32,000 nt of DNA from Candidatus Altimarinota bacterium (lineage in GTDB: Bacteria > Patescibacteriota > Gracilibacteria > UBA1369), in assembly GCA_041659405.1 (NCBI GenBank), contig JBAZYK010000005.1:31796-63795 (forward strand), given 5' to 3'. Shown here one piece after another: positions 1,857 to 15,077 of the stretch (the stretch's first letter is position 1; each line of letters opens with the position of its first letter). The notes under the pieces were generated by a model, which saw only the letters and a program-made list of their open reading frames with translations, had not been told where the DNA came from and did not search any database. Both the position numbers and the translations under genes were made by a program.

Positions 1857-2141
1857 ATGCCAGTAATAAAGTCAGCAAAAAAGAAGGCTCGCCAAGCCCT
1901 ACGTCACTTGGAGCGCAACAAATCCACACGTTCAAAGGTTAAGACTTACATCAAGAAAGTTATAACTTTGAGCAAGACTAATATTGAAGAGGCTAAAAAA
2001 CTGTTGCCTGAAGCTTATTCCGCGATTGATACAGCCAAAAAGAAGAATGTTTTGCATAAGAACAATGCATCCCGCAAGAAGTCTTTGCTGGCAAGAGCTA
2101 TAGCCGCAGGAAGCACAAGCGGTAAAAAAGAGGTTAAATAA
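1857..2141 (+). CDS. rpsT: 30S ribosomal protein S20
   Basis: 94 aa and very basic. The N-terminus MPVIKSAKKKARQALRHLERNKSTRSKVKTYIKKV is the characteristic S20 pattern. Confidence 0.93.
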   Translation: MPVIKSAKKKARQALRHLERNKSTRSKVKTYIKKVITLSKTNIEEAKKLLPEAYSAIDTAKKKNVLHKNNASRKKSLLARAIAAGSTSGKKEVK

Positions 2142-2320: not shown

Positions 2321-2708
2321 GGGCCTGTAGCTCAGTGGTTAGAGCAGTCGGCTTAACACGCACGGAGCTTAACGGAGTGCGGCGCTCGCCAAAAGCGGGC
2401 ATAGCAAAACTCCGAATGCTTTATGCGTTTAGGGCTGCATGGAGAGCGATTTCCATGTGAATTTCTGCCAAATTCGGGGAAGCCTTCTTGTGCACACGCA
2501 CAAATGGTAATCCCGAGCCAAGCCTCGTCAACGAGGAAGGTGTAGAGACTAGACGGTAGATTCCTAATTTGATAAAAATCCTCCCCGGGGAGGGATTACC
2601 AAGTTAGGAAAAGGGATAGTCCAGCTTACAAACCTGAAAAGGGTCGCGAAAGCGATAGTGAGATGCATAACCGATTGGTCGATGGTTCAATCCCATCCAG
2701 GCCCACCA
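2321..2708 (+). tRNA. Intron-containing tRNA with anticodon CAT; tRNA-Ile2 (lysidine type) favoured, elongator Met possible
   Basis: Exon 1 is 2321-2353 (GGGCCTGTAGCTCAGTGGTTAGAGCAGTCGGCT). Exon 2 is 2666-2708 (CATAACCGATTGGTCGATGGTTCAATCCCATCCAGGCCCACCA). Joined, they give a 76-nt cloverleaf: acceptor GGGCCTG/CAGGCCC, D stem GCTC/GAGC, anticodon stem GTCGG/CCGAT, loop CTCATAA, 5-nt variable loop, T arm GATGG-TTCAATC-CCATC, and encoded CCA. The G1-C72 pair argues against an initiator. From memory, the body closely resembles the E. coli ileX-type tRNA. Confidence 0.85.
2354..2665 (+). ncRNA. Group I intron (IC3-like) in the tRNA anticodon loop
   Basis: 312 nt lie between U33 and C34. The 5' exon ends in U and the intron ends in G (omega-G). 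Several stretches nearly match the Azoarcus tRNA-Ile intron core as I remember it: CCAAATTCGGGGAAGCC (2468-2484), CCGAGCCAAGCC (2513-2524), GAAGGTGTAGAGACTAGACGG (2536-2556), and the terminal ...GCGAAAGCGATAGTGAGATG. There is also a long peripheral hairpin at 2561-2610 (TTCCTAA..CCTCCCCGGGGAGGG..TTAGGAA). No ORF lies inside. Confidence 0.8.
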
Positions 2709-2752
2709 GAAAAAAACATGGATAAATAATGATGTTCATAATTTATTAAAAT

Positions 2753-3388
2753 ATGACTAAAGACCAAATCGATAATTTTGCTTCAAAAATAGCTGCCAGT
2801 ATATATAATGGAACTTCCGTGTTCACGACTGATAAATGGATTGTTGAGTTTGAAACTATTTCAAATTATAAAATTCAGCGAAGTGTAATTGATGGCGTAG
2901 TTTTGGTAAGCTTGTATTTCGGCATTTATTTTATTCAACGTAAAGCGCAAACTTTTTTTGATGATCAAAAATTGAAAGTTTTCAATGAAGAGTTGAAAAG
3001 AGTTATTATATTTTATTTATCAACTGTATATTTTGAATCTGTTGATAAAGAACAAAATCCTGAAAAACATTTAAAACGTGTAAAAGATACTTTTGAAGCA
3101 TTATTTTCCCAAAGCATGGATGCATATTCTTCGTATACAGGTGGTAACATCACAATACTTTTTAAAGCTTTTGTGCAAAATGAATTTAATAGCTCCATAG
3201 TTAGCCCTAAAATTAAATTCACGAAAAATTCTTTTAAGAATCGCTTTTTGATTAACCTTGCAATGGTTATGGGTGGACCTAATGCATCATTTGCTAATGA
3301 TACGGTCTTAGATGAAAAGATCTTAGATAATTATGTGCAAAATATCGTTTCCACGCTTACGGAAATTGATTTTCATCCTGAGCTGTAA
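2753..3388 (+). CDS. Hypothetical protein (211 aa), first gene of the AT-rich island
   Basis: Track ORF. I recognise no motif. There is one hydrophobic stretch (VIDGVVLVSLYFGIYFI) and the gene is very AT-rich. Confidence 0.6.
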   Translation: MTKDQIDNFASKIAASIYNGTSVFTTDKWIVEFETISNYKIQRSVIDGVVLVSLYFGIYFIQRKAQTFFDDQKLKVFNEELKRVIIFYLSTVYFESVDKEQNPEKHLKRVKDTFEALFSQSMDAYSSYTGGNITILFKAFVQNEFNSSIVSPKIKFTKNSFKNRFLINLAMVMGGPNASFANDTVLDEKILDNYVQNIVSTLTEIDFHPEL

Positions 3389-3436
3389 GGTTTTTGCAAA
3401 TTCATCTTCCAGGATTTATGATCAGCTAAATTCGAC

Positions 3437-3502
3437 CATTTGGTCGACGGTTCGAACCCTAACCTTTTGATTTCAGGGTCAACTCGTCCCAATGCCCCAC
3501 CA
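3437..3502 (+). other. tRNA 3'-half-like fragment (possible att or tRNA remnant)
   Basis: ATTTGGTCGACGGTTCGAACCCT matches 17 of 23 positions of GATTGGTCGATGGTTCAATCCCA, the variable-loop and T-arm segment of the upstream tRNA. The segment ends ...GCCCCACCA (tRNA: GGCCCACCA). No cloverleaf can be drawn. Confidence 0.25.
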
Positions 3503-3570
3503 TGTTTTGGCTTACTTAAGCATTTTTTTAAGTATCGGGCCAAAAATTATCTTAGTTTTGAGAATTATTT

Positions 3571-4512
3571 ATGAAAGAATTTAAAATGGGTTGGCTTTTC
3601 GGCCTTAGCAATGGTGATGTGGATGAAATCGAGGTTGGATTGTTTAAAATCAGACGGATGTCTGGTACTGAAAGAGAATTTGTCATACGAAATTCTTTGG
3701 TTTTTTTTGGTAGCTCAGAGAAAATTGAGAACACTTTGGCTCGTTTTCCATATGTATTTGAAAAAGAAATAATTAAGAATAATTCTGAGAGTTTAGGTTC
3801 ATTAGACTCAATTGTGTTACTTCTCAATATTTTATCTTCTGGAGAAGTTAAAGCTCCATTTCAGTGGTCTGAAAATGTTAATGGACAAGGCAGTTCATGG
3901 AGCACAGAAATTTATTTATTATTTTTTCGTTCAATCAACTCTCATTTTAAGGAAATACCCGTCGAAACGATCATTGAACCTCTTAAAAAAATTGGCCATA
4001 TTTTGAGCGATAAACTAAATGTAAATGATTTATCTGAAAATATAGACCCATGGTTGAAAAATCGATTACTTGTTTCAAAAAACTATCCATTAAACATTAA
4101 TTTTGGGAATGATTTTGGCATCCCTGTTTTCATTACTCGTACTGTCGAAATATCCTCGGCATTGGAATTTCTTTTTCAAGAAAACACCAATGCCGACATT
4201 AGTTTTAGGCTTCCATTAAATGTTGCATGGCTTTTGGGTAATTCTACAGATGAAAGAAAACAAATTTTTGATGCTGTTAGGGATACTTATAATGTTAGAA
4301 GTAAAAATGTTCATGGTGATCCTAAAAACAAACCAGGCCATAATGAAAAATCTTTTAAAAATGTAGAATTATCAGATTATTGTTTGCGCAGAAGTATACT
4401 TATAAAAGCTACTAACAAGTTTGATAAAAAAACATGGATAGAATATTTCTCAAATGCACGTTTTGGTGCTGACTTAAGTGGAATGGATAGATTTGAATGG
4501 ATTTCAAAGTAA
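3571..4512 (+). CDS. HEPN-domain protein (putative RNase, Apea/MAE_28990-like C-terminal HEPN)
   Basis: 313 aa. The C-terminal helical region is SSALEFLF...FRLPLNVAWLLGNSTDERKQIFDAVRDTYNVRSKNVHGD. It contains an Rx4H motif (R243-H248, nt 4297-4314) in the typical Y..RS..VHG context of HEPN families. The N-terminal ~190 aa are unrecognised. Confidence 0.6.
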   Translation: MKEFKMGWLFGLSNGDVDEIEVGLFKIRRMSGTEREFVIRNSLVFFGSSEKIENTLARFPYVFEKEIIKNNSESLGSLDSIVLLLNILSSGEVKAPFQWSENVNGQGSSWSTEIYLLFFRSINSHFKEIPVETIIEPLKKIGHILSDKLNVNDLSENIDPWLKNRLLVSKNYPLNINFGNDFGIPVFITRTVEISSALEFLFQENTNADISFRLPLNVAWLLGNSTDERKQIFDAVRDTYNVRSKNVHGDPKNKPGHNEKSFKNVELSDYCLRRSILIKATNKFDKKTWIEYFSNARFGADLSGMDRFEWISK

Positions 4513-4568
4513 TTTTTACGTTTATATCACTAAATAAGCGGAAGATGATAAAAAATATTGATGTGATT

Positions 4569-4803
4569 ATTAATATTTTAACAAATACCTATGGAAATTA
4601 AGGATAGTAATGGCGTGGTGCTGCAGACTGGGGACAGCGTTCAGATAATTAAGGACCTCAAAGTTGGCGGATCTTCGATGGTGCTGAAAAGAGGCGACGT
4701 GGTCAAAAACATCAAAATAGTTGAGGACGAAGAAGAGGTGGAATGCCGCATAGGCAAGGCCACAATCATGCTAAAGCCGGAATTCCTAAAGAAAAAGGGT
4801 TAG
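4569..4803 (+). repeat. Direct repeat copy 1 (235 bp; covers the whole PhnA-C-domain gene plus 22 nt of leader)
   Basis: Hand alignment to 9958-10192 (offset 5389) shows 6 mismatches in 235 nt. Identity starts at ATTAATATTTTAACAAATACCTATG and stops exactly at the stop codon. Confidence 0.9.
4591..4803 (+). CDS. PhnA/YjdM C-terminal-domain protein (70 aa), copy 1
   Basis: KDSNG..L..GDSV..IKDLKVGGSS..LKRG..VKNI..V.....ECRIGKA.IMLKPEFLKK matches the C-terminal domain of E. coli PhnA/YjdM from memory. The N-terminal zinc ribbon is absent. Confidence 0.75.
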   Translation: MEIKDSNGVVLQTGDSVQIIKDLKVGGSSMVLKRGDVVKNIKIVEDEEEVECRIGKATIMLKPEFLKKKG

Positions 4804-4804
4804 A

Positions 4805-4834
4805 TTTACAGGATTGAATTTGTCTCCTTATAAT
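4805..4834 (+). promoter_or_regulatory. Candidate promoter for the abiEi-abiEii operon (TTTACA-18 nt-TATAAT)
   Basis: Hexamers at 4805-4810 and 4829-4834. GTATA(C/T)-containing repeats downstream (4841-4850, ~4856-4866, ~4910-4918) could be AbiEi operators. This is speculative. Confidence 0.3.
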
Positions 4835-4929
4835 TTTCACTATACTTTTTTTCTAAAATAGTATATTCTAAATGTAGAAAACACCATAAAGATGATAATT
4901 ACCACACTTACAGTATACTACAATAACTT

Positions 4930-5718
4930 ATGGCAAAGTCAAAAGAACAATTAGGTAAAATAATCCGTAAGGCAGGTGAGATATTTAGGGTGGCAGATGC
5001 TGCAGCAATACTTGAGGTATCTAATATTGAGGCAGCAAAAAGGCTGGCAAGGTGGGCGACACAGGGATGGCTCACTAGAATCCAGCGTGGATTGTATGCT
5101 CTAGTGCCTATTGAGGCTTCAACTGATAGAGCTCTTGAAGATGCCTGGATACTTGTGCCAGAACTTTTTGCTCCCTGCTACATTGGTGGTTGGTCTGCAG
5201 CAGAATACTGGGATTTTACTGAGCAACTTTTTAGAGATGTTTGCGTTATAACTGAGCGAGCTATACCTAAGAAAACACAACAGTTTCATGGTGTTCCTTT
5301 TGCTCTCACAAGAATTAATAATGCCTTATCCTTTGGCACGAAAATTATTTGGCTGAAAGAAAAGAAAATTTTGATTTCAGATCCTCATAAAACTATTATT
5401 GATATGCTTTATGACCCACAATTAGGCGGGGGGATTCAGCACATAATGGATTGCTTTAAAGAATACCTAAAAAGCTCGCATTTTAACCCTGAACAACTTG
5501 GTAACTATGCCGAAAAACTCAATAATGGGGCTGTATTTAAACGATTGGGATTTCTATCTGAGCATGAACTTGGTAAGGAGCATTCAATAACCAAGTTATG
5601 TAAATCTCGTTTAACAACAGGAAATGCATATCTAGATCCAAAACTTAAGGGTGGTGCCCTGATTACGAACTGGCGTCTTTTTGTACCTATAAATATCAAG
5701 GAAAATTATGATACCTAA
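4930..5718 (+). CDS. abiEi: AbiEi-family antitoxin / transcriptional regulator (type IV TA)
   Basis: 262 aa. The N-terminal wHTH-like segment is FRVADAAAILEVSNIEAAKRLARWATQGWLTRIQRGLYALVP. It is followed by GGWSAAEYWDFTEQ and ILISDPHKTIIDML, typical of AbiEi/COG5340. It overlaps the downstream NTase gene by 11 nt. Confidence 0.8.
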   Translation: MAKSKEQLGKIIRKAGEIFRVADAAAILEVSNIEAAKRLARWATQGWLTRIQRGLYALVPIEASTDRALEDAWILVPELFAPCYIGGWSAAEYWDFTEQLFRDVCVITERAIPKKTQQFHGVPFALTRINNALSFGTKIIWLKEKKILISDPHKTIIDMLYDPQLGGGIQHIMDCFKEYLKSSHFNPEQLGNYAEKLNNGAVFKRLGFLSEHELGKEHSITKLCKSRLTTGNAYLDPKLKGGALITNWRLFVPINIKENYDT

Positions 5719-7195
5719 GCGAGAAATTCTAGAAAGTGCAACAAACAACAGCCTCACACCACATGTAATTGAAAAGGATTACGTTTTGGGGTGGATACTT
5801 GCTGGTATTAATAATCATGCAATAATTGCTAATTCATGGATATTTAAAGGAGGAACATGCTTAAAAAAATGTTACTTCGATACCTACAGATTTTCTGAAG
5901 ATTTAGATTTTACATTACGCGATGAAAGCCACATAAATGCTGATTTTTTATTGAAGACTTTTAGTGACATAAGCAAGTGGATTTATGAATTTTCTGGCAT
6001 TGAAATACCACCAGATCGAATGATATTTGATGTTTATGAAAACCCACGCGGGAAAATGTCATGTCAGGGGCGCTTATTTTATAAAGGGCCTGCCACATCT
6101 CAATCAAAAAATGCCATGCCGCGCATTAAGCTTGATCTCTCCGTTGATGAAATTGTAGTTGCACCAACAATCATCAACTCAATCAGCCATGCATATAGCG
6201 ACTTACCTCAGGACGGATTTCATATTCAATGTTATTCCTATGAAGAAGTATTTGCTGAGAAGATACGTGCACTTGCAGAACGCACACGTCCGCGCGATCT
6301 GTATGATGTTATCAATTTTTATCGCCGTCCGGAGTCTGAAAAAAGAGCGATGCAGATAAAAGGAATCTTGCGGAAGAAATGTGAATTTAAAGGCATTGAA
6401 ATGCCAACATATTCCGCTTTGCAAAAACATAAAGATGAATGCCAAGGAGGATGGGTTGATCAATTGAACCATCAATTGCAGGCGTTACCTCCATTTGAAT
6501 CTTTCTGGAATGAATTACCGGATTTTTTTAATTGGCTAGAAAGCCCAACATCTCCTCTCGTTAGAATACATACAACAATACCAGTACAAGCAGGCACTGT
6601 TATTGATCAATCAGATATTGGTTTAATAAATTCTAGTGCAGCCGCTCCACAGTTCAACTTATTGGATAGAATTCGTTTTGCTGCAGCAAATTATCTCTGT
6701 GTGGAAATAATTTATCATCGTGAAGATGGAGCACAAAATACATATTTGATTGAGCCATATTCTCTCAGGCGTACATCAGATAACCATTTATTGCTTTATT
6801 CGTTAAAGCATAATACAGCAGACATCCGAGCTTTTAGAACTGACCGTATTATTAATGCTATAGCCACAACCACAACTTTCACCCCTAAATATCGTATAGA
6901 ATTTTTGCCGTCAGCTCCTTTAAATCCTGGTGGAGTAGTTTTAAGCTATGATCGCGATATTCTGGGTGTCTCAAAACGGAAGAAAAGTAGTAATTACTCT
7001 TTTGCAAAGCTACTTAAACCAAGCCGCTCACGTTCGTCCAGCTTTGGGTCTACGATAAAATATATTTATCAATGTCCTTTCTGCAGGAAGACTTTCCATA
7101 GAAGTAGTATGGATAGTAAATTGAATCCTCATAAAAATAAACAAGGTTGGCAATGTTCTGGAAAGACAGGAGTTTATATTAAAACAAAGTATTAG
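5708..7195 (+). CDS. abiEii: AbiEii/DUF1814 nucleotidyltransferase toxin with a C-terminal WYL-like domain and a Cys/His cluster
   Basis: The N-terminal ~280 aa carry the DUF1814 hallmarks IEKDYVLGW, FKGGTCLKK, RFSEDLDFT and EEVFAEKIRALAERTRPRDLYDV. Residues ~318-399 (nt ~6659-6904) read LDRIRFAAANYLCVEIIYHREDGAQNTYLIEPYSL...LLLYSL...IRAFRTDRIINAIATTTTF, which is a WYL-domain pattern. Residues 456-483 (nt ~7073-7156) read CPFC-x4-H-x10-H-x7-C. At 495 aa it is far longer than a typical DUF1814 protein. Confidence 0.8.
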   Translation: MIPKREILESATNNSLTPHVIEKDYVLGWILAGINNHAIIANSWIFKGGTCLKKCYFDTYRFSEDLDFTLRDESHINADFLLKTFSDISKWIYEFSGIEIPPDRMIFDVYENPRGKMSCQGRLFYKGPATSQSKNAMPRIKLDLSVDEIVVAPTIINSISHAYSDLPQDGFHIQCYSYEEVFAEKIRALAERTRPRDLYDVINFYRRPESEKRAMQIKGILRKKCEFKGIEMPTYSALQKHKDECQGGWVDQLNHQLQALPPFESFWNELPDFFNWLESPTSPLVRIHTTIPVQAGTVIDQSDIGLINSSAAAPQFNLLDRIRFAAANYLCVEIIYHREDGAQNTYLIEPYSLRRTSDNHLLLYSLKHNTADIRAFRTDRIINAIATTTTFTPKYRIEFLPSAPLNPGGVVLSYDRDILGVSKRKKSSNYSFAKLLKPSRSRSSSFGSTIKYIYQCPFCRKTFHRSSMDSKLNPHKNKQGWQCSGKTGVYIKTKY

Positions 7196-7274
7196 AGGCT
7201 GAATTCATTGTTACGATTGCAAAAATCCTATAAAAAGTGCATATTTTTATTGTTGATTTTGTCTTAAATTTTTT

Positions 7275-7895
7275 ATGAAAATAAAAATAGTAGCATTAGT
7301 TTCATTGCTTTTATTCACTGGATGCTCGTTTTCTAAGCAACCTGAGGCGTTTTTGGGTACAAAATTTGGAATGTCATCTGCAGAAGTAGAAAATGTTGTT
7401 GGTAAAAAACTACTAACTGGTGATGAGTATTTAGCTGACGCATCAAATCCAAAGTTTTTTGATTGGCTTGCTAAAAAGTATGGAGCGATTGCAATAAATA
7501 ATGTCCCGCTAGACAAGGAATATGCTGATAGATCGAAGGATTTTTTTATGTCTAGGATAATGCTTTATGACTTTCCGGCAGGAACTGATTTTAATTTTTT
7601 GGACGATAAGTTGAATAATGTTTCTGTCAATTTTGACGTAATGTTTGGGAATGCAGATGACCTACTTGGTAAAATTAAAGAAAGTCTTGAGAAAAATTAT
7701 AAATTTATTGTAAAAGAGGACAGCAAAGATGTGCCTGGAGCTTACACTTTAAAATATCAAAAAGACGATGTTAATGTTGATTTATGGATTAATGCAGTCG
7801 GACAAAATAAATATGTCAATTTAGATATTCATTACCTGCCTTTTAATAAGGCTTATGATGAAGAACTTAAAAAACGAGAGCAGAAAGCTTTATAA
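7275..7895 (+). CDS. Hypothetical lipoprotein
   Basis: MKIKIVALVSLLLFTGCS is a signal peptide with lipobox LFTG|C. The rest is unrecognised. Confidence 0.65.
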   Translation: MKIKIVALVSLLLFTGCSFSKQPEAFLGTKFGMSSAEVENVVGKKLLTGDEYLADASNPKFFDWLAKKYGAIAINNVPLDKEYADRSKDFFMSRIMLYDFPAGTDFNFLDDKLNNVSVNFDVMFGNADDLLGKIKESLEKNYKFIVKEDSKDVPGAYTLKYQKDDVNVDLWINAVGQNKYVNLDIHYLPFNKAYDEELKKREQKAL

Positions 7896-7935
7896 TGAAA
7901 TTTGATTCAACGAAAAGTTCTACAATAGCAGTATC

Positions 7936-8964
7936 TTAGGATAGCTTATTTAACAAATCTTCGGCAAAAGTATTCAAATTTCCGTCATTTGTATCTTCAA
8001 AAATATCGACTAACTTTTTATCAAATTGCGCAACCCTAGCTTCCCATATTGCTTTAGTCTCTAATTCTTTTTTCACTCCGGAATCATCTTGTGAATAACA
8101 TAATTGATTTTTGATTTTCTTCATATTTCCAACTATAACCAAACGCAGATGATAATTTTTCACTGCATCCAAAATAACATCATTAATGTGCTTATCCCTA
8201 AAACTATATCCGATAACCACTAATGTTGCTCCATCTCTACATAATACCTCTCTAAATAGCCACAAATAGAAAGCGAGCAATGGTTCTTTTTCCAAATCTC
8301 TAGGCTTATTCTTTCCAAAAATCATTCCATCAGAACCGTCAGCAGATAACCAGCCGTATGAGCCATGCAATTTTATATAATTTAAGTCATTCAAATCACG
8401 ATAATCTCCAACGTGGCCTTCGGCAGCAGAAACGCGACCTTTAAGTTTCTCAATCTCTGATAAATTGGGAAGCTGTACAAAATCTTTTCTCTCTAAAACC
8501 TGCTTTTTATTTAACTTTGCTGCTTCAGCAATAGGTATACCATAGGCTTTCATCCCACTACGACTCTCGTGTAATAGATCCTGATTCAGTGTAAAGAAAA
8601 ACCCTTTTTGGCTCCCCCTGCCTATAATTCGTTGTATCAAAGTCCTTCCGACTTTACTGTATGTTCCACCTGCCTTATTAAAATCACTTTTTAATTCTTT
8701 ATCTAAAGCTTTATAAGCATCAATAACTAGCTCTCTTGCAATGGTTTTATCCTTCGGATTTATATCGTTTGATGCGTCTATTTCTGAATAGATGCCTTCA
8801 TAATCAAGATCGTCAGAGTTACTAATAATTCCTCGCGCAATATCTGACAAAGAATTTATCCTCGAATTATTAAAAATCTTTTCATACATGTCACTAGCCA
8901 AAAAGCCACCATAATTGGCAGTGTAACCAGCACCAGTAAGTAAGATATTTTTCGAATAATCCAT
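7936..8964 (-). CDS. Stand-alone SIR2-like (SIR2_2 family) protein, putative NADase-type defence effector
   Basis: 342 aa with ILLTGAGYTANYGG (GAG nucleotide-binding start), FFFTLNQDLLHE (the TTNYD.L.E equivalent), YIKLHGSYGW (catalytic His motif) and LVVIGYSFRDKHIN. I recognise no fused sensor domain. Confidence 0.7.
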   Translation of the reverse strand: MDYSKNILLTGAGYTANYGGFLASDMYEKIFNNSRINSLSDIARGIISNSDDLDYEGIYSEIDASNDINPKDKTIARELVIDAYKALDKELKSDFNKAGGTYSKVGRTLIQRIIGRGSQKGFFFTLNQDLLHESRSGMKAYGIPIAEAAKLNKKQVLERKDFVQLPNLSEIEKLKGRVSAAEGHVGDYRDLNDLNYIKLHGSYGWLSADGSDGMIFGKNKPRDLEKEPLLAFYLWLFREVLCRDGATLVVIGYSFRDKHINDVILDAVKNYHLRLVIVGNMKKIKNQLCYSQDDSGVKKELETKAIWEARVAQFDKKLVDIFEDTNDGNLNTFAEDLLNKLS

Positions 8965-9246
8965 GATCGTTTATATAAATGTGTGTATGTGGATAAGTTA
9001 TCATATTGCAAGGGTAGGGACAAATTGCCACCCTGTTGAGTTGTCCGCCTATTTCGGACGACTGAATCAGGCGGAGAAAAATGGCAGAAAGGTTTAAAAC
9101 TGAGGATATTCAGCTTTGCTATGTTAGTATTGATGATTTTATGAATTCAATGGAACGGCTGAACCAATGGTGATTTTGGATTAAATGTAATACTATAGGT
9201 GCTGTTCAGTTATTAACTATGTCTTATAAATTAATTAAAAGTATTT

Positions 9247-9912
9247 ATGCAATCACAGGCGTCTAAAATTCTTTTTTCCGTAATTCTTACTGCAGTTATC
9301 GTTGGGGGAGGTGTTTATTTTTGGCAGCATCAAGAAGCCGCTCAGATCACGACTCCAGTAGTAACTGTAAAAGATTCGGAACAACTTAATATAAAGCCAG
9401 TAACACAAGAATCCACTTCAACAGATCTTTTTGAATTAGCAAAAAACACAAAAGATGAGTTCACTTATCTTGTCTCAGCACCAAAATTAACTGGTGACTG
9501 GAAAATGACAATAAATAACAATTCTGGAGATTATGTCCTTCGTTTTTCTTTAAAATATAAATATTCTCCTTGGGGAGAGTTGCGCTATACTAAGGCCGAT
9601 TTAACTGCGACTGATGGAGCTCCTCCTGTAAATGGTCTCTCAGGTGTTGCTTCTTATAGTTTCTGTGCCGGTCAATACTATTGTGATGAAACTAATCATA
9701 AAGGAATGGGCTTTGATCTTACATTTTGGAATGCAAAATTTATTGGAAGAGCAGCAGATCCAAAATTTTATTTAAAAGATGGTGAAACTTTTCTTAAAGA
9801 AACGGACAAATATATAGTTACCTATAAGCCATTTACTGGCTCGCCTGCTAATCAACAGGTGAAAGTGAATCAAGAAGTCTCAGACCTTGTGAGTTCTTTC
9901 GAGATTTATTAG
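9247..9912 (+). CDS. Hypothetical membrane-anchored protein
   Basis: The N-terminal TM/signal anchor is ILFSVILTAVIVGGGVYFW. The rest is unrecognised. Confidence 0.6.
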   Translation: MQSQASKILFSVILTAVIVGGGVYFWQHQEAAQITTPVVTVKDSEQLNIKPVTQESTSTDLFELAKNTKDEFTYLVSAPKLTGDWKMTINNNSGDYVLRFSLKYKYSPWGELRYTKADLTATDGAPPVNGLSGVASYSFCAGQYYCDETNHKGMGFDLTFWNAKFIGRAADPKFYLKDGETFLKETDKYIVTYKPFTGSPANQQVKVNQEVSDLVSSFEIY

Positions 9913-9957
9913 CTTTTAATCCGGCCGCCAAGACCTCGCGAAAAAATCATAATTTAA

Positions 9958-10192
9958 ATTAATATTTTAACAAATACCTATGGAAATTAAGGATAGTAAT
10001 GGCGTGGTGCTGCAGACTGGGGACAGCGTTCAGGTAATTAAGGACCTCAAAGTTGGCGGATCTTCGATGGTGCTAAAAAGAGGCGACGTGGTCAAAAACA
10101 TCAAAATAGTTGAGGACGAAGAAGAGGTGGAATGCCGCATAGGCAAGGCCACAATCATGCTCAAACCAGAATTTCTAAAGAAAAAGGGTTAG
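9958..10192 (+). repeat. Direct repeat copy 2 (235 bp)
   Basis: See copy 1. The differences are one I/V codon change (A4637 vs G10026), one silent change, and four changes in the last 30 nt. Confidence 0.9.
9980..10192 (+). CDS. PhnA/YjdM C-terminal-domain protein (70 aa), copy 2
   Basis: 69 of 70 aa are identical to the 4591-4803 product. Confidence 0.75.
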   Translation: MEIKDSNGVVLQTGDSVQVIKDLKVGGSSMVLKRGDVVKNIKIVEDEEEVECRIGKATIMLKPEFLKKKG

Positions 10193-10353
10193 CCAGGATC
10201 AGATGGATGAGCGGCTGAAGCACCGAGAAGTGAAAAAACTTTTAATACAGTCAAAGAAAAAATAATTGGCAGTCGCCCCACCACCGATCTTGTAACACTT
10301 TTTTGGGAATCCTGTTATATTGTGATGTATCATTTCTTAATCCCCTTTTCCCT

Positions 10354-12192
10354 ATGAAAAAATTGTCATTGGCCATGCTGGGAGTGCTTGGCATCACGGT
10401 TGTTTTGGCTGGTTGTAGCGCCGAAACAGTTACAACCCCAAGTTCAACCACTCCGGTTACTGTTCTAACTCAGACGCAGGCCACTCAAACCGAGCAAACT
10501 ACTCAGACTCAACAATCTTTTCAGGTTACTCCGGTTGAAACAAACGAAGTTTCATTTACTAAGACGACAGCACTTACCCCTGAATCTGTGCTTTCACAGG
10601 CCAAAATAACCAAGCTTGTTGCTGCGTATAATGATAATCTGAAAATTACAGATCCAAAACAAAAAATTGACTGGGGAACAAATTATCCTGGAGGTATGGG
10701 CGGCGATTCATCACTCAAAGCTTCATTCCGTTTTTATAATGCGGGCAAATTGAAGGTTGCACCTTATAAAGATTGGGATCTGCTAGTGCTTTCACTTGGT
10801 TGTGATGGGCCTTGCGATCATAATCCGGTTTATCGTTTGGCGCAGAATCCTGCCAACCAGGACCTTACTATGCTCACAAAATATTCCGACGATTTAAGTG
10901 ATAGTCGTATAGTTGGCTTGTTGGCTGCAATAACTCAAGATAAAAAATTTACAATCCCTGCGCTTGATTTGCCGGCAACATTAGCGATTACGGGCTCCAC
11001 AGCTGTGCTGAAGCTAAAATTTGCTGACAGTGAATATATTCCCGACTTAATCAAGTTAGCACCTGCGTACAGAAATTTTTACACCAAGGTACTTTATAAT
11101 TCCACGATCGGGCCGGTTTATGCATACGACACCAATTTGAATTCGAATGGATCAGGTGTTGGCTGTGTCCAAGTCAAAAAGCCTGATGGTTCAGTCGCGA
11201 CCTACGCTTTTGAGACGGGATTCGACAATAATAAGTTAACCATGAAACCTGTGGGCGGAACGGAAATGCCCGTGGCTGGAAACTATGAACCCGGACAACG
11301 TGGCTGCGGTATCGGTAGCAATTGTTATTATACAACATCGGTCAACGAGAAAAATCTTCAAGAATATGTAACTCTTTCCAATGGGCTGAAACTTTATGCA
11401 CCGATAAAAACTGATGAAAAAGCTGATCCACTAAATGTGACAGACGATGTTGGACTGATGAATTCTACCTACAAGCAATATGCCAGCTCTTACCAATACG
11501 GTGATACTTCCAAACCAAAGCTGACTTTTGCCCAATATGTAACCAACCATCCGGTGTTATTTTGGCAGGATCCGTTCAAGCGCTGGAGCACGTTGGTTTC
11601 TTCAAAGTTTGCGTCGCCTGCGGAATGCGGCAAACCGGTCATTTATCTCTATCCTCAAAAAGATACTAAGGTAAGCGTAAAAGTTGGAATTGATAAAATC
11701 ACCAAGAGCGATCCAAATTATGGTACAAACGGCTGGACTGTTTTGGCGCATGTTGGAGGCTTATTGACCAACTTAGCCGACGGCAAAGACTATCCGTATC
11801 TGTTTTGGGAAGGCCAGAGCAGCAAAATGATTGGGGTAGAAAATGGCTTTAGCGTGGCCCGTGGCGATCTTGAAAATTTCTTAAATCGCACTTTAAAACA
11901 GGCCGGATTAAATGCGCAGGAAAGCAAAGATTTTATGGAATTCTGGTATCCAAGAATGATGGCGAACAAGCAGCCGTACTTCATAATCAGCTTTGTGGGA
12001 ACAACTGAGTTCAATAAAATTGCACCTCTTAATATTTCCCCAAAACCGGATACCTTGGCGAGAGTATTTATGTATTATCAGCCAAGTTATGCCAACATAA
12101 ATCTTAGACCGCAAGTAATAAATGGCTTTGCGCGCCGCGGATTTACAGTTGTTGAATGGGGCGGGACTTCCAATATCCCATGGGTATACTAA
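10354..12192 (+). CDS. Large hypothetical lipoprotein
   Basis: I moved the start from the track's 10303 to the internal ATG, giving MKKLSLAMLGVLGITVVLAGCS (lipobox LAG|C). A T/Q-rich linker follows (TQTQATQTEQTTQTQQ). The C-terminal region PVIYLYPQKDTKVSVKV...YLFWEG is unrecognised. Confidence 0.65.
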   Translation: MKKLSLAMLGVLGITVVLAGCSAETVTTPSSTTPVTVLTQTQATQTEQTTQTQQSFQVTPVETNEVSFTKTTALTPESVLSQAKITKLVAAYNDNLKITDPKQKIDWGTNYPGGMGGDSSLKASFRFYNAGKLKVAPYKDWDLLVLSLGCDGPCDHNPVYRLAQNPANQDLTMLTKYSDDLSDSRIVGLLAAITQDKKFTIPALDLPATLAITGSTAVLKLKFADSEYIPDLIKLAPAYRNFYTKVLYNSTIGPVYAYDTNLNSNGSGVGCVQVKKPDGSVATYAFETGFDNNKLTMKPVGGTEMPVAGNYEPGQRGCGIGSNCYYTTSVNEKNLQEYVTLSNGLKLYAPIKTDEKADPLNVTDDVGLMNSTYKQYASSYQYGDTSKPKLTFAQYVTNHPVLFWQDPFKRWSTLVSSKFASPAECGKPVIYLYPQKDTKVSVKVGIDKITKSDPNYGTNGWTVLAHVGGLLTNLADGKDYPYLFWEGQSSKMIGVENGFSVARGDLENFLNRTLKQAGLNAQESKDFMEFWYPRMMANKQPYFIISFVGTTEFNKIAPLNISPKPDTLARVFMYYQPSYANINLRPQVINGFARRGFTVVEWGGTSNIPWVY

Positions 12193-13175
12193 AAAAATTA
12201 CAATCCAAAGGAGTTCGCTGCGCTCGCGGAATATATGCGAACTTCGCGCGTAAGGGATGGGCCATACACGTGGCCCTCCTTTTGGTTGTGATGATTGGCG
12301 GAATTGGTCTGGGAGTTTTGTACCAGCCGGGGACGCGGACGGGATCCGTGCCAGTTCCGGGGCAAAAAACGCCGTCCAATGTTACGAGTAATGCTCGCTC
12401 TAATGCTACCGGGAAGATTGTGGGCGCGGTTCTCCCCCATCATTTATTAGTGGCGAATTTTATTGACGATTTTTATGCTGAACTGGCCAAACAAATCAAA
12501 CCTGCACGCATAATTTTGATCAGCCCGAATCATTTTGATAAAGGTGTGAAGTACATTCAAACCGCTACGGTAACGCCAAATGACCAGTATAATGATTTGC
12601 TGGATTTGCAGGCCATTAATTTTTTGGCTTCAAAGGCCGGCGCGTTTATCGAAAATAAATATTATTCGGTTGAGCATGGAATTTATGTTCATTATCCGTT
12701 TATAAAAAAATATTTTCCACAGGCACAAATTATTCCGATAACTTTAAAGCGAGGAACACCGCAGGCACAAATGGATAAACTGATTGCGGATTTGCAGGAT
12801 TTGCAAAAGATCGAAAATAAAACCACTTTAATTTTGGCGAGTGTGGATTTTACGCATTACGTTTCCGAGGATATTGCAGCCAAAAATGACCAACAGACGA
12901 TTGCCTACTTTACGCAGTGGGCATCAGTCGAAAGTTTAAGAAACAATCCCGCACAGGTTTTTGCCGATTTGGTGCGACTGTCAAAATCACCAAAAGAACA
13001 AAATCCCGATGCGGTTGCCATAGATAGCCCTGAAAGCATTTACGTTATGTTGAATTATCTAAACGACAACGGTGTTCACGGTTTTTCGCTCTGGAAACGC
13101 ACTTCCACGTTAAGTCTGACCACGCTTAAAGATCCAAACATGAACACGAGTCATATTTTTGGAAAGTTTTTATAG
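12180..13175 (+). CDS. Memo-like / AmmeMemoRadiSam system protein B family, membrane-anchored
   Basis: GAVLPHHLLV, ILISPNHF, YYSVEHGIYVHYPFIKKYF and ASVDFTHY fit the Memo/class-III extradiol-dioxygenase-like family. There is an N-terminal TM helix, WAIHVALLLVVMIGGIGLGVLY. The start is ambiguous (12156 or 12180). Confidence 0.6.
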   Translation: MGILKKLQSKGVRCARGIYANFARKGWAIHVALLLVVMIGGIGLGVLYQPGTRTGSVPVPGQKTPSNVTSNARSNATGKIVGAVLPHHLLVANFIDDFYAELAKQIKPARIILISPNHFDKGVKYIQTATVTPNDQYNDLLDLQAINFLASKAGAFIENKYYSVEHGIYVHYPFIKKYFPQAQIIPITLKRGTPQAQMDKLIADLQDLQKIENKTTLILASVDFTHYVSEDIAAKNDQQTIAYFTQWASVESLRNNPAQVFADLVRLSKSPKEQNPDAVAIDSPESIYVMLNYLNDNGVHGFSLWKRTSTLSLTTLKDPNMNTSHIFGKFL

Positions 13176-13178
13176 GCC

Positions 13179-15077
13179 TTATACCGGCCCCCTGCTCTTA
13201 AAATGCTGATACATGGACATAATTCTGGCTACGTAATTTTGTGTTTCTCTGTATGGTGGAACGCGATTGCCATATTTTGCCACTGCACCTTCTCCGGCGT
13301 TGTATCCGGCTAAAGTTAAAGACATATCTCCGTTGTATTTGTTCAACAATTTTGAAAGTAATTTTACTCCGGTCATGATTGATTTTTCCGGGTTGGCACG
13401 ATCATCTTCCGGATCCAGCGCATAATATTTTCGGCCTTTTGAACTTATTTTTTCAATACTTGGTAAGATTTTTGCGTTTGCATTTCCCAGTCCACGATAT
13501 GTGTCCGGCATGATCTGCATTAAGCCACCCGCGCCAACCGGCGAAGCAATATTTGGATTAAATCCCGACTCCTGATTCATTACGGCGACAACGAAATCTT
13601 TATCCACATTGGGATAAGTACGACAAGCCTGTTCTATTAGCGGCATGTACTTTTCGGCTTTGCGCAATGCTCTTTCCGATGCTGATTCCAAACCGGTTTG
13701 CGCGACTTCCCGCTCATCACGTTTTTCAGCTTTAATTTCCGAAGGAAGAACGGCTTGTGCATATTCTTTTGCTTTTTCGCTTTGCAAAAGGTCTCTGCAC
13801 TTGGATGGATCTTTATCAAATTCCAGGTGCATTTCATCTAAAGTATCCGGATTCCAATCTGCCCCGCAATTAAATCCAACACTTCTAAAAACGGCTAAAA
13901 CTTCCGCCGGCATGTTGCCGGATTTTTTATATCTTGGATTTTTTGATGGATCAATATCAAGCGCTACGCCCCAAGAATGAAGGTTTTTTTTGCCGGTATC
14001 TTTTCCCTGCGCATCTGCAATATTTCTTTTGTTGTAAGACTGAATAACTTCCGGATTAAATTTAATTCCGGCCTTGCGCAAACGCTCTTCAACTTCAACC
14101 AAATAAGGCATTATTAACCGATTCACCGCAAAATTTTTGCCTAAAAATGTAAAAGGTTTATTTTTTTCGACAGGATCTTTATTACTGATTAAAGTGGTGT
14201 TTTCGCCCACAACGGAAGTCCAAAATCTGCGATCAACCTTTTCGTAATCTTTGCCGTTAATGTTTACAACTTCCCTGGCGCGAGTTTTTTCCGGTTTTGC
14301 CTGTGGAGCTTTGGACATAGGGCCTTCAACCGTTATAACTGGAGGCGTTTGTGACTGATTTTCACGTGGCAAAGACTGATGAGCAGTCTCCGCATCCCGT
14401 GCGATTTTTTCAAAAAGAATTTTTTCCCCCAGCTGAACACGTTGTACATCAAAATCGTCTTTTGAGCCGGTACTTAAAATTTCCACGGACCAATCATTGT
14501 AAACGGGTACATACTTTAAAATGTGCTTTTCCAAATAAGTTTTTTTATCAAAATAACCAATTCTATGTGGATTTACTGTTTTATCAATCGCGCGGAAAGC
14601 TTCTTCGGAAACCACTGTCCCGGTATCATCCATAACTTTTACAGTTTTTATATTGTTGGCAAACATATCACCTAAACCGATGATGTCTTGAGCTGTTTTA
14701 TTTCCCGTAAAATCGACTTTAAAAGCCAACTTTGAAGGCTGCTTATTATCTCTTTCCAAAAAAGATGCAGACAACAGAATATGCTTTCGGTCAGGGTCTT
14801 TGCCATTTTCTTCCGGGGACATTCCACCGGACCGCATTGCTAGTTTTGCCTTATTGGCCATGTCAAAATCATTTTCGTTTTGGCCTTTTTGATATTGATT
14901 GTCCCACTCCAAACTACGTGCAAAAAAGTTGCGATGATCTTTTGGAGGAAGATTCTTAATACCATCCAAAAAAGGTTGAAGATTTTTTTCATTTTCACGC
15001 AAAGCTTTCAAAGCTTCCGGTGTTTTTGCTTCTATGTTGGGTAATTCTGGTTGTGAACGCTGCACAGGGTCGCCCAT
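13179..15077 (-). CDS. Bifunctional cell-wall hydrolase: LAS/M15-type peptidase domain plus C-terminal SLT lytic transglycosylase domain
   Basis: NLHSWGVALDID (HxxGxAxD) and LDEMHLEFD fit the VanY/M15 zinc peptidase pattern. AVMNQESGFNPNIASPVGAGGLMQIMPDTY is a classic SLT catalytic-Glu motif. There is no obvious signal peptide. Confidence 0.75.
   Translation of the reverse strand: MGDPVQRSQPELPNIEAKTPEALKALRENEKNLQPFLDGIKNLPPKDHRNFFARSLEWDNQYQKGQNENDFDMANKAKLAMRSGGMSPEENGKDPDRKHILLSASFLERDNKQPSKLAFKVDFTGNKTAQDIIGLGDMFANNIKTVKVMDDTGTVVSEEAFRAIDKTVNPHRIGYFDKKTYLEKHILKYVPVYNDWSVEILSTGSKDDFDVQRVQLGEKILFEKIARDAETAHQSLPRENQSQTPPVITVEGPMSKAPQAKPEKTRAREVVNINGKDYEKVDRRFWTSVVGENTTLISNKDPVEKNKPFTFLGKNFAVNRLIMPYLVEVEERLRKAGIKFNPEVIQSYNKRNIADAQGKDTGKKNLHSWGVALDIDPSKNPRYKKSGNMPAEVLAVFRSVGFNCGADWNPDTLDEMHLEFDKDPSKCRDLLQSEKAKEYAQAVLPSEIKAEKRDEREVAQTGLESASERALRKAEKYMPLIEQACRTYPNVDKDFVVAVMNQESGFNPNIASPVGAGGLMQIMPDTYRGLGNANAKILPSIEKISSKGRKYYALDPEDDRANPEKSIMTGVKLLSKLLNKYNGDMSLTLAGYNAGEGAVAKYGNRVPPYRETQNYVARIMSMYQHFKSRGPV

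Follow-up and report, generated by a model that had tools for sequence, protein, structure and literature searches.

The window analysed here is a stretch of DNA of 32,000 nucleotides (nt), corresponding to positions 31796-63795 of contig C5 in a 1.5-Mb genome assembled in 21 contigs (C-numbers denote its contigs). Immediately 3′ of a tRNA(CAU) gene in this window lies an AT-rich stretch (2709-10192) that carries, in order, an orphan gene (h211), a decayed copy of the tRNA 3′ half, the gene of a protein of 313 amino acid (aa) residues (h313), the small gene phnA-C, the abiE operon, a probable lipoprotein gene, the gene of a SIR2-like protein, a membrane protein gene (mem221) and a second copy of phnA-C (Table 1). 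The gene order and coordinates given in an earlier note on this DNA, including the two phnA-C copies and the tRNA-like fragment at 3440-3502, hold. That note had described the stretch as a defence island, and what stands of this description is that the segment is tRNA-adjacent, accessory, AT-rich and free of mobility genes; it does not appear to be one island, as at least three layers of different age can be proposed from the sequence comparisons reported below. We consider it likely that the 3′ flank of the tRNA(CAU) is an additive hotspot, at which independent events have accumulated accessory genes, largely of anti-phage type. Comparisons were made with a panel of 40 relatives, 24 of them from the same family, with rpsT as the control gene; G-numbers denote the genomes of the relatives (G000 being the source genome) and L-numbers the compared contigs or loci, including L018 in G010. 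G001 is the sole same-genus genome, G040 belongs to the same order and G019 to a different genus.

Table 1. Features of the tRNA(CAU) 3′ flank and its surroundings (window coordinates).
Feature	Position	Strand	Details
rpsT	1857-2141		upstream of tRNA(CAU)
tRNA(CAU), Met/Ile2-type	2321-2708	+	312-nt intron at 2354-2665; ARAGORN with introns allowed
Insert with orphan gene h211	2709-3439	+	ORF 2753-3388; GC 0.30, GC3 at 1.5th percentile
Decayed tRNA 3′-half copy (relic)	3440-3502	+	17/20 match to tRNA positions 43-62, about 30 unrelated nt, then GCCCCACCA
h313 (313 aa)	3571-4512	+	N-terminal alpha/beta domain; C-terminal helical domain with RSxxVHG
phnA-C copy 1 (YjdM C-domain)	4569-4803	+	ORF 4591-4803; left arm of 235-nt direct repeat
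Predicted abiE promoter/operator region	4804-4929	+	sigma-70-like site 4805-4834, 11/12 positions; AGTATA inverted repeats
AbiEi antitoxin/transcriptional regulator	4930-5718	+	PADLOC AbiEi E = 5e-108; Pfam AbiEi_4 E = 1.6e-8
AbiEii nucleotidyltransferase toxin-WYL	5708-7195	+	PADLOC E = 7e-172; Pfam AbiEii E = 2.9e-35; WYL E = 1e-6
Probable lipoprotein	7275-7895	+	signal peptide, then Cys17; N-terminus MKIKIVALVSLLLFTGCS
SIR2-like protein, SIR2_2 family, stand-alone	7936-8964	-	342 aa; PADLOC SIR2 E = 6e-15
Block common with sister strain (L026)	9161-10195	+	96.5% nt identity; mem221 (9247-9912) and phnA-C copy 2
phnA-C copy 2	9958-10192	+	ORF 9980-10192; right repeat arm, distal edge of AT-rich stretch
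Native-composition genes	10193-13178	+	629-aa lipoprotein (10303-12192) and Memo-like protein; GC 0.43, GC3 70th-88th percentile
SLT/M15 protein, first syntenic core gene	13179-15077	-	

Concerning base composition, the GC content of the stretch is 0.3495 as against a genome mean of 0.4047 (standard deviation 0.0176 over 2729 same-size windows), which places it 3.1 standard deviations under the mean, a level reached by only 0.15% of these windows, and its tetranucleotide distance from the genome lies in the top 0.7%. The GC content at third codon positions (GC3) of h211, h313, both abiE genes and the lipoprotein, SIR2-like and mem221 genes falls between the 1st and 9th percentiles of 911 open reading frames (ORFs) of the genome, and genes from 10303 onward show ordinary GC3. 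The four 60-nt spot counts from which a lower GC content had earlier been claimed were exact on recount, and the dip they pointed to is confirmed by the computed profile. Two further 7.5-kb stretches of the genome, near position 87000 of C5 and near position 14000 of C13, are equally AT-rich (GC 0.344 and 0.346, respectively) and are candidates for more islands.

The rpsT-tRNA pair is conserved across the family, and in every relative examined the tRNA is followed by other cargo, which differs in G001, G004, G008, G010, G016, G020 and G040 and on the contigs L029, L053 and L055. In the same-genus genome, homology to the window ceases precisely at the 3′-terminal position of the tRNA (2708), which is the proximal boundary of the variable slot. 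On the distal side, G020 and G004 carry approximately 2 kb (a hexapeptide transferase and unknowns) and 4.7 kb (an HD-domain protein, one unknown and Thy1) of unrelated genes, respectively, followed by the ortholog of the SLT/M15 protein and a colinear Rrf2-SufCB segment. The slot holds two more tRNAs, a hydrolase and an AT-rich type II restriction-modification (R-M) pair (N6_N4 methylase and EcoO109I) in G016, an HTH-SDH protease, a deaminase-like protein and a MarR-PRTase matching PsyrT/ShosT defence models in G010, unknowns and a TsiV-like immunity protein on L053, and an Xre-type HTH protein with four unknowns, and a phnA-C homolog beyond them, on L055. Judged by these comparisons, the tRNA 3′ flank appears to be a recurrent landing site, often with defence or immunity content. 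A comparison of the interval from rpsT-tRNA to the large lipoprotein gene across genomes had been suggested previously as a means of delimiting the variable segment; such a segment was indeed found, but defined by synteny it ends past that gene and spans 2709-13178 (10.5 kb), though 10193-13178 is natively composed. The accessory status of the genes is borne out by their distribution in the panel, where rpsT was found in 35 of the 40 genomes, phnA-C in four, the SIR2-like protein and mem221 in one each, and AbiEii, h313 and the full-length lipoprotein in none. The earlier note had named synteny conserved in all relatives together with a flat composition as telling against an island; both were looked for and neither was observed. 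In G010 (L018 6362-9639) the three cargo genes are co-oriented, the protease is HTH-SDH/ClpP-like and the MarR-PRTase matches the PADLOC PsyrT model at E = 2e-14; this protease-deaminase-PRTase trio may be an uncharacterised defence system.

The tRNA(CAU) was missed by ARAGORN at its default settings and by Rfam, and was recovered by ARAGORN as tRNA-Met(CAT), with an intron after position 34, when introns were allowed. Since its exons are contiguous in four relatives (G004, G008, G016 and G020) and G001 and G010 carry the insert, the intron is a real insertion, in keeping with the intron-bearing tRNA described previously; an Rfam search with a threshold as permissive as E ≤ 1 assigned it to no family, not even to the group I introns. 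On the metagenome contig L053 a 605-nt insert is found at the same anticodon-loop position. The intron mode of ARAGORN, which is prone to false positives, predicted further tRNAs with long inserts, namely Thr(tgt) c[8266,8572], Gly(tcc) c[12421,12900] and Thr(ggt) [53645,53919].

The h211 gene, located between the intact tRNA and the decayed 3′-half copy, yielded no family match in Pfam, NCBIfam, PADLOC or PHROGs and only a self-match among 5.8 billion proteins. With up to three mismatches, the 20-mer of the relic occurs only three times genome-wide. The distance from the end of the relic to the ATG of h313 is 68 nt, and 68 nt also separate the true tRNA end from the ATG of an h313 homolog (67% identity) that directly follows the tRNA on L029; the two spacers align. 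L029 starts with the 3′ half of the orthologous tRNA, and the core proteins of its source relative are 53-76% identical. Because the tRNA-spacer-h313 order of L029 matches the relic-spacer-h313 order of the window, the junction of tRNA and h313 would be the older one, with h313 as an older resident of the slot. The relic is read as the displaced old tRNA 3′ half, that is, as a probable att-type scar, and the h211 insert appears to be the youngest layer of the stretch. A 795-bp insertion (2709-3502) carrying only h211 would have gone into the tRNA 3′ half, thereby splitting the ancestral tRNA-h313 junction, regenerating an intact tRNA and pushing the old 3′ half distally. A split junction combined with a restored tRNA is the classical mark of site-specific integration into a tRNA gene; no integrase accompanies the insert, and the enzyme may have acted in trans or been lost. 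An exact 15-nt repeat, AAAAAAACATGGATA (2710-2724 and 4426-4440), begins 2 nt past the CCA end of the tRNA and recurs within the 3′ end of h313; it was considered as a recombination footprint and rejected as probably due to chance, since 11% of Markov shuffles yield such a repeat.

The product of h313 had been labelled a HEPN protein in the earlier note. Its Rx4H motif comprises R243 to H248, and all 14 aligned family sequences retain R243, S244, H248 and G249. The family includes 13 full-length homologs, and approximately 380 more proteins share the C-terminal domain only; among 30 distant sharers of this domain that were aligned, S198 and H202 are invariant and the consensus is RSKxVHG. In the AF2 model (pLDDT 87, pTM 0.89) the C-terminal domain is all-helical. 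Foldseek searches against the PDB and BFVD returned no significant match (best Csm6 at E = 0.45, TM 0.23), as did single-sequence and profile searches against PDB sequences; Pfam, NCBIfam and PADLOC gave no match, PHROGs gave one match of unknown function, no relatives were found on viral contigs, and the N-terminal alpha/beta domain has no known relative. HEPN-domain abortive-infection and toxin RNases reportedly form an Rx4-6H superfamily. The likeness of h313 to these enzymes lies in the invariant R-x4-H within an all-helical C-terminal domain and in the defence-island setting, whereas no HEPN profile matched h313 or the 30 sharers of its C-terminal domain (Pfam and PADLOC for the latter), and h313 had no significant fold match. 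The HEPN label is therefore suggested by the invariant motif and not by the fold and profile searches, and h313 is best regarded as a HEPN-like candidate RNase at the level of its motif; that it represents the first member of a novel Rx4H nuclease family, equipped with a new kind of sensor domain, is a bolder idea that we think rather unlikely.

Each arm of the 235-nt direct repeat consists of the whole phnA-C ORF and a 22-nt leader and ends sharply at the stop codon. The encoded protein of 70 aa comprises the YjdM C-domain only (Pfam YjdM, E = 1.9e-25). The two copies are 97% identical, with six differences (five synonymous and one I19V), and a third allele, from the sister strain, shows seven and nine differences from them; as the differences are mostly synonymous and the third allele is about equally distant, both copies appear to be under purifying selection. 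Their GC3 (0.55-0.59, 99.6-99.7th percentile) makes them outliers in the direction opposite to the other genes of the stretch. The repeat brackets 5.2 kb containing the genes for AbiEi, AbiEii-WYL, the lipoprotein, the SIR2-like protein and mem221. Among the relatives, phnA-C is present in G013, G019, G028 and G040, and the copy in G019 is 87% identical to that of the window, rpsT there being only 70% identical. The gene is small and highly conserved yet patchy, and may itself be mobile. On the metagenome contig L055, 2.9 kb of other cargo separate the orthologous tRNA from a phnA-C homolog (63%) on the same strand, and because the order of tRNA, cargo and phnA-C is thus repeated, phnA-C seems to flank the slot distally on a recurrent basis. 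Homologous recombination at phnA-C would have brought in the bracketed segment, either as a circle inserted in Campbell fashion or through an unequal exchange between two strains; the mechanism of the duplication could be either of these or a site-specific event. Exact-protein look-ups for strain variants returned the same contig and one 2.5-kb sister-strain contig only.

In the sister-strain contig (L026), the region upstream of mem221-phnA-C (1-804) contains, in the opposite orientation, a different SIR2_2-like gene with FNYD and KPHGS motifs (Pfam E = 0.002), which occupies the same position as the SIR2-like gene of the window and is unalignable to it. Position 9161 would therefore represent a recombination breakpoint distal to strain-specific cargo, and the AbiE-lipoprotein-SIR2 segment appears to be strain-specific. 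The mem221 product is a membrane protein with an anchor sequence, no other assignable features and no curated family in Pfam, NCBIfam or PADLOC. Its one full-length homolog in the panel (58%, G040) starts 30 nt after the orthologous tRNA. As the sister strain keeps mem221-phnA-C with another SIR2 gene and mem221 adjoins the tRNA in G040, cargo would have been both replaced and stacked at this site. Beyond the second phnA-C copy, the 629-aa lipoprotein shares 66% aa and 77% nt identity with that of the sister strain, beside the closely matching mem221-phnA-C block, and only 31-34% with that of the same-genus genome; it is either a fast-evolving surface protein or marks a second recombination boundary at approximately 10195.

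The abiE operon was examined with regard to both its control region and its products. A promoter-like TTTACA-18-TATAAT begins 2 nt past the stop codon of phnA-C copy 1 and is surrounded by reiterated AGTATA inverted repeats (4805-4920), which suggests an operator role for the region upstream of abiEi. The abiEi and abiEii genes overlap by 11 nt. AbiEii (495 aa) has intact KGGTCL, SEDLDF and RDLYD motifs, together with a WYL domain and a C-terminal CxxC...H...C cluster, and the Pfam matches to AbiEi_4 and AbiEii are above their cut-offs. From its sequence, AbiE is a solid identification and would be the sole complete known defence system in the stretch. AbiE is known as a type IV toxin-antitoxin and abortive-infection system composed of AbiEi and AbiEii, a DUF1814 nucleotidyltransferase. 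The pair described here resembles known AbiE in its adjacent, overlapping genes, its strong PADLOC and Pfam matches and its conserved nucleotidyltransferase motifs, and differs in the length of its toxin and in the C-terminal WYL domain and Cys/His cluster; a single PADLOC AbiEii model covers this subtype of toxin through the WYL part (residues 1-405). It is thus a predicted type IV toxin-antitoxin/abortive-infection pair in which AbiEi would restrain the toxin and WYL would act as a sensor domain. The nearest homologs of AbiEii among species representatives belong to Planctomycetota (57%, full length; L030), Margulisiibacteriota and Gammaproteobacteria, and their location in other phyla fits horizontal spread. 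A distant AbiEii-like paralog is encoded elsewhere in the genome (G000:C4:125353-125898; 34% identity over residues 17-225).

The SIR2-like gene is flanked by the lipoprotein and membrane protein genes. In an alignment of 40 family sequences the motifs GAG, TLNQD and KLHGS are invariant, as are N127 and H200. The family comprises more than 770 stand-alone proteins of approximately 330 aa and is very common in Patescibacteria-labelled genomes. Together with the small size of the genome, the names attached to many of these matches (Uhrbacteria, Nomurabacteria, 'Patescibacteria group') suggest that the window comes from a Patescibacteria-like bacterium. The AF2 model (pLDDT 87) consists of the SIR2 domain only; Foldseek placed it closest to the Sir2 of Sir2-HerA (E = 7e-9), then to KomBC, SPARSA and ThsA, with sirtuins at only about 1e-2. 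The best match is with Sir2-HerA (Nezha; PDB 8sub, 8j4u and 8yhx; PMC11514289) both by structure (8sub, probability 1.0) and by sequence among PDB entries (E = 1.8e-7), and the catalytic Asn/His signature is shared; the present protein differs, however, in its length (342 aa versus about 400), a TM-score of about 0.5 at 15-18% identity, and the lack of a HerA gene in the island or on contig C5, where no DUF87 match was found, the DUF87 matches of the genome being located on C2, C4, C6, C8 and C10. It also scores far under the NCBIfam SIR2_antiphage cut-off (36 versus 500 bits). An effector of the Thoeris ThsA, DSR or SPARSA type was rejected, as the protein is a SIR2 domain only, with no fused or paired SLOG, large C-terminal sensor or short Argonaute; Pfam and PADLOC likewise revealed no TIR, Argonaute or SLOG among its neighbours. 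A structured RNA upstream of the gene was also rejected (z = -1.3; Rfam match spurious). No conserved partner gene emerged, the neighbours of the closest homologs being unrelated to each other or to any window gene. The match in the panel is on another contig. The 85% homolog occupies a different, likewise AT-rich locus of a relative, in a defence island that contains AIPR, MmeI-type R-M genes, helicases and a large serine recombinase. In other genomes, large serine recombinases and a terminase adjoin close homologs, and among viral sequences one 34% homolog was found, on a single IMG/VR contig. From its modelled fold, the protein is a putative NAD+-depleting effector of defence type. The neighbouring lipoprotein has no family in Pfam, NCBIfam, PADLOC or PHROGs, and neither it nor the membrane protein yielded any defence evidence.

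As had been noted previously, no integrase, transposase or recombinase is recognisable in the island: searches of its ORFs against Pfam, NCBIfam, PHROGs and PADLOC revealed no such domain. The genome contains two tyrosine recombinases, on C4 and C11, and no serine recombinase above the family cut-off. A phage origin was rejected, as blastn of the island against 50,697 phage records gave no match and PHROGs gave only weak matches of unknown function and no phage-type genes, and so was an integron-like cassette array, since neither an integrase nor a recurring family of intergenic repeats was found.

Taken together, a complete AbiE system, a defence-type SIR2 protein and a candidate HEPN protein lie within 6 kb, and PADLOC, the tool proposed in the earlier note, returned AbiEi, AbiEii and SIR2 (Table 1). 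The three independent abortive-infection effectors claimed there stand in part, as AbiE is complete and the SIR2-like protein has a defence-type fold, but the latter is without a known partner and the HEPN assignment extends to a motif; the defence function of all three is best described as putative. In the reading that we favour, the separate arrivals proposed above would have been accompanied by further swapping of cargo by recombination through the conserved flanks, tRNA and phnA-C, and such recombination needs no resident mobility gene. Several observations weigh against this reading. The panel consists of distant relatives, the assembly of the sole same-genus genome is interrupted 544 nt past the tRNA, and only 2.5 kb of sequence is available from the sister strain. 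A physical scar exists for one acquisition event only, and the relic match is marginal when judged on the island alone (p of about 0.04), its significance deriving mainly from the positional match in L029. No tRNA-derived repeat was found at the distal end of the whole stretch: searches with an exact 25-mer allowing three mismatches, with blastn-short and by local alignment of the window and G040 tRNAs to every intergenic region recovered only the relic, which bounds the first 795 bp alone. The mechanism of the phnA-C duplication is one that we infer, and no excised or empty-site variant was seen; the SIR2-like protein lacks any known partner, h313 lacks fold or profile support as a HEPN protein, and two genes of the stretch encode envelope proteins without an assigned role.

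It is unlikely that the whole stretch is what remains of one integrative element, be it a prophage, a satellite or an integrative mobilisable element, which came in at the tRNA and later lost its integrase and most of its other genes, even if the tRNA adjacency, the tRNA 3′-half relic, the AT-richness throughout and the recombinases and terminase beside close SIR2 homologs in other genomes would suit such an origin. The relic lies only 795 bp from the tRNA and not distally, no other tRNA-derived repeat accompanies it, phage-record similarity and phage-type genes are lacking, and the sister strain possesses mem221-phnA-C at 96.5% identity but not the adjacent SIR2 gene; moreover, since homologs of h313 and mem221 directly follow the tRNA in L029 and G040, respectively, these genes would have arrived or resided independently. 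That the genes are accessory but not mainly defensive, with AbiE acting as an addiction or stabilisation module and the others serving, for example, host interaction in an epibiotic bacterium, appears very unlikely. AbiE alone is a complete known defence system, no Pfam, NCBIfam or PADLOC family covers half of the eight distinct products (h211, h313, the lipoprotein and mem221), and a SIR2 family so common in Patescibacteria-labelled genomes could be lineage-specific housekeeping; set against this, the SIR2 fold is far closer to antiphage SIR2 effectors than to sirtuins, the surroundings of its closest homolog include AIPR, MmeI-type R-M genes and helicases, the slots of relatives carry R-M and PsyrT-like PRTase genes, and AbiEii-WYL has the patchy distribution, scattered across phyla, that is typical of a defence gene.

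Two alternatives concern the phnA-C bracket itself. The sharp, gene-coincident edges of the repeat (22 nt before the ATG to the stop codon) around 5.2 kb of AT-rich cargo, and the patchiness, extreme GC3 and higher cross-genus identity of phnA-C relative to rpsT, would also suit a discrete cassette that inserts site-specifically at phnA-C in trans and bears a replacement copy of its target. We regard this as quite unlikely, as att sites do not typically take the form of a 235-nt repeat that spans a whole gene, no recombinase is nearby, the breakpoint seen in the sister strain falls within the segment at 9161 and not at the repeat edges, the phnA-C genes of G013, G019, G028 and G040 are located away from the rpsT region, those neighbours that were examined (in G019) include no similar cargo, and a single duplicated instance is known. 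An assembly artefact joining two strain variants through the shared gene deserves mention in that the genome is a metagenome assembly and a strain variant of the same locus exists in public data, but it is extremely improbable. Six sites differ between the copies, the same arrangement is present in a 106-kb contig at ENA, and the contig name there (k141_...) suggests a final k of 141, at which k-mers would be copy-specific and the path unambiguous; a chimera at phnA-C is thus unlikely because, as far as the behaviour of the assembler can be judged, no identical run between the copies exceeds 86 nt. A bolder extension of the additive-hotspot reading, which we think rather unlikely, is that small conserved genes beside the tRNA act as portable homology arms, with phnA-C as a gene-sized handle for defence cassettes and h211-type inserts placed in trans; ordinary homologous recombination could then excise a whole cassette as a loop and return it to the chromosome of any strain with phnA-C. 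If true, such handles would constitute a distinct, mobility-gene-free route of defence-cassette exchange in Patescibacteria-like bacteria.

Hotspots of defence genes adjacent to tRNAs are well documented for E. coli, Pseudomonas, Vibrio and Acinetobacter. A search of the literature on defence in Patescibacteria turned up no such hotspot in these ultra-small, probably episymbiotic bacteria. The findings extend current views rather than overturn them, in that the same hotspot architecture appears to operate in a 1.5-Mb genome; less ordinary are the host lineage, the 795-bp single-gene tRNA scar, the phnA-C bracket and the two poorly understood effector candidates. The locus would preserve legible scars of two acquisition routes, namely tRNA integration and recombination via a small gene present in duplicate, and compact functional candidates are found in the AbiEii-WYL toxin, the partner-less SIR2 and the Rx4H protein of uncharacterised fold.

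Among known systems, integrative elements that target tRNAs create a distal att site in which part of the tRNA is duplicated (Williams 2002, as cited in PMC10121019). The h211 insert is like them in having an intact proximal tRNA and a displaced partial 3′ half distally, and unlike them in measuring 795 bp, carrying one orphan gene and no integrase, and ending in a decayed relic with an interruption of approximately 30 nt. The closest counterparts of the stretch as a whole are the additive hotspots. In P. aeruginosa, cDHS1 and cDHS2 are core defence hotspots flanked by tRNA or tmRNA that hold additive islands, for which homologous recombination via the conserved flanks has been proposed (PMC10250203), while in E. 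coli tRNA loci account for 18 of 41 hotspots, the systems recorded at hotspots include AbiEii, and one hotspot is without a detectable mobile genetic element in 68% of occupied cases (PMC10121019); mobility genes are often absent at published hotspots (PMC10121019, PMC10250203). The tRNA(CAU) flank shares with these a fixed slot formed by conserved genes and a tRNA, a variable, AT-shifted and defence-rich cargo, stacked acquisitions, the occurrence of many occupied cases without an identifiable mobile element, and AbiE among the systems. It differs from them in its far smaller size of 7.5 kb (10.5 kb by synteny), in its location within a 1.5-Mb, probably Patescibacteria-like genome and in its single complete known system, while the internal tRNA-half scar and the whole-gene phnA-C duplication around cargo are features of the window that are undescribed in PMC10250203 and PMC10121019.

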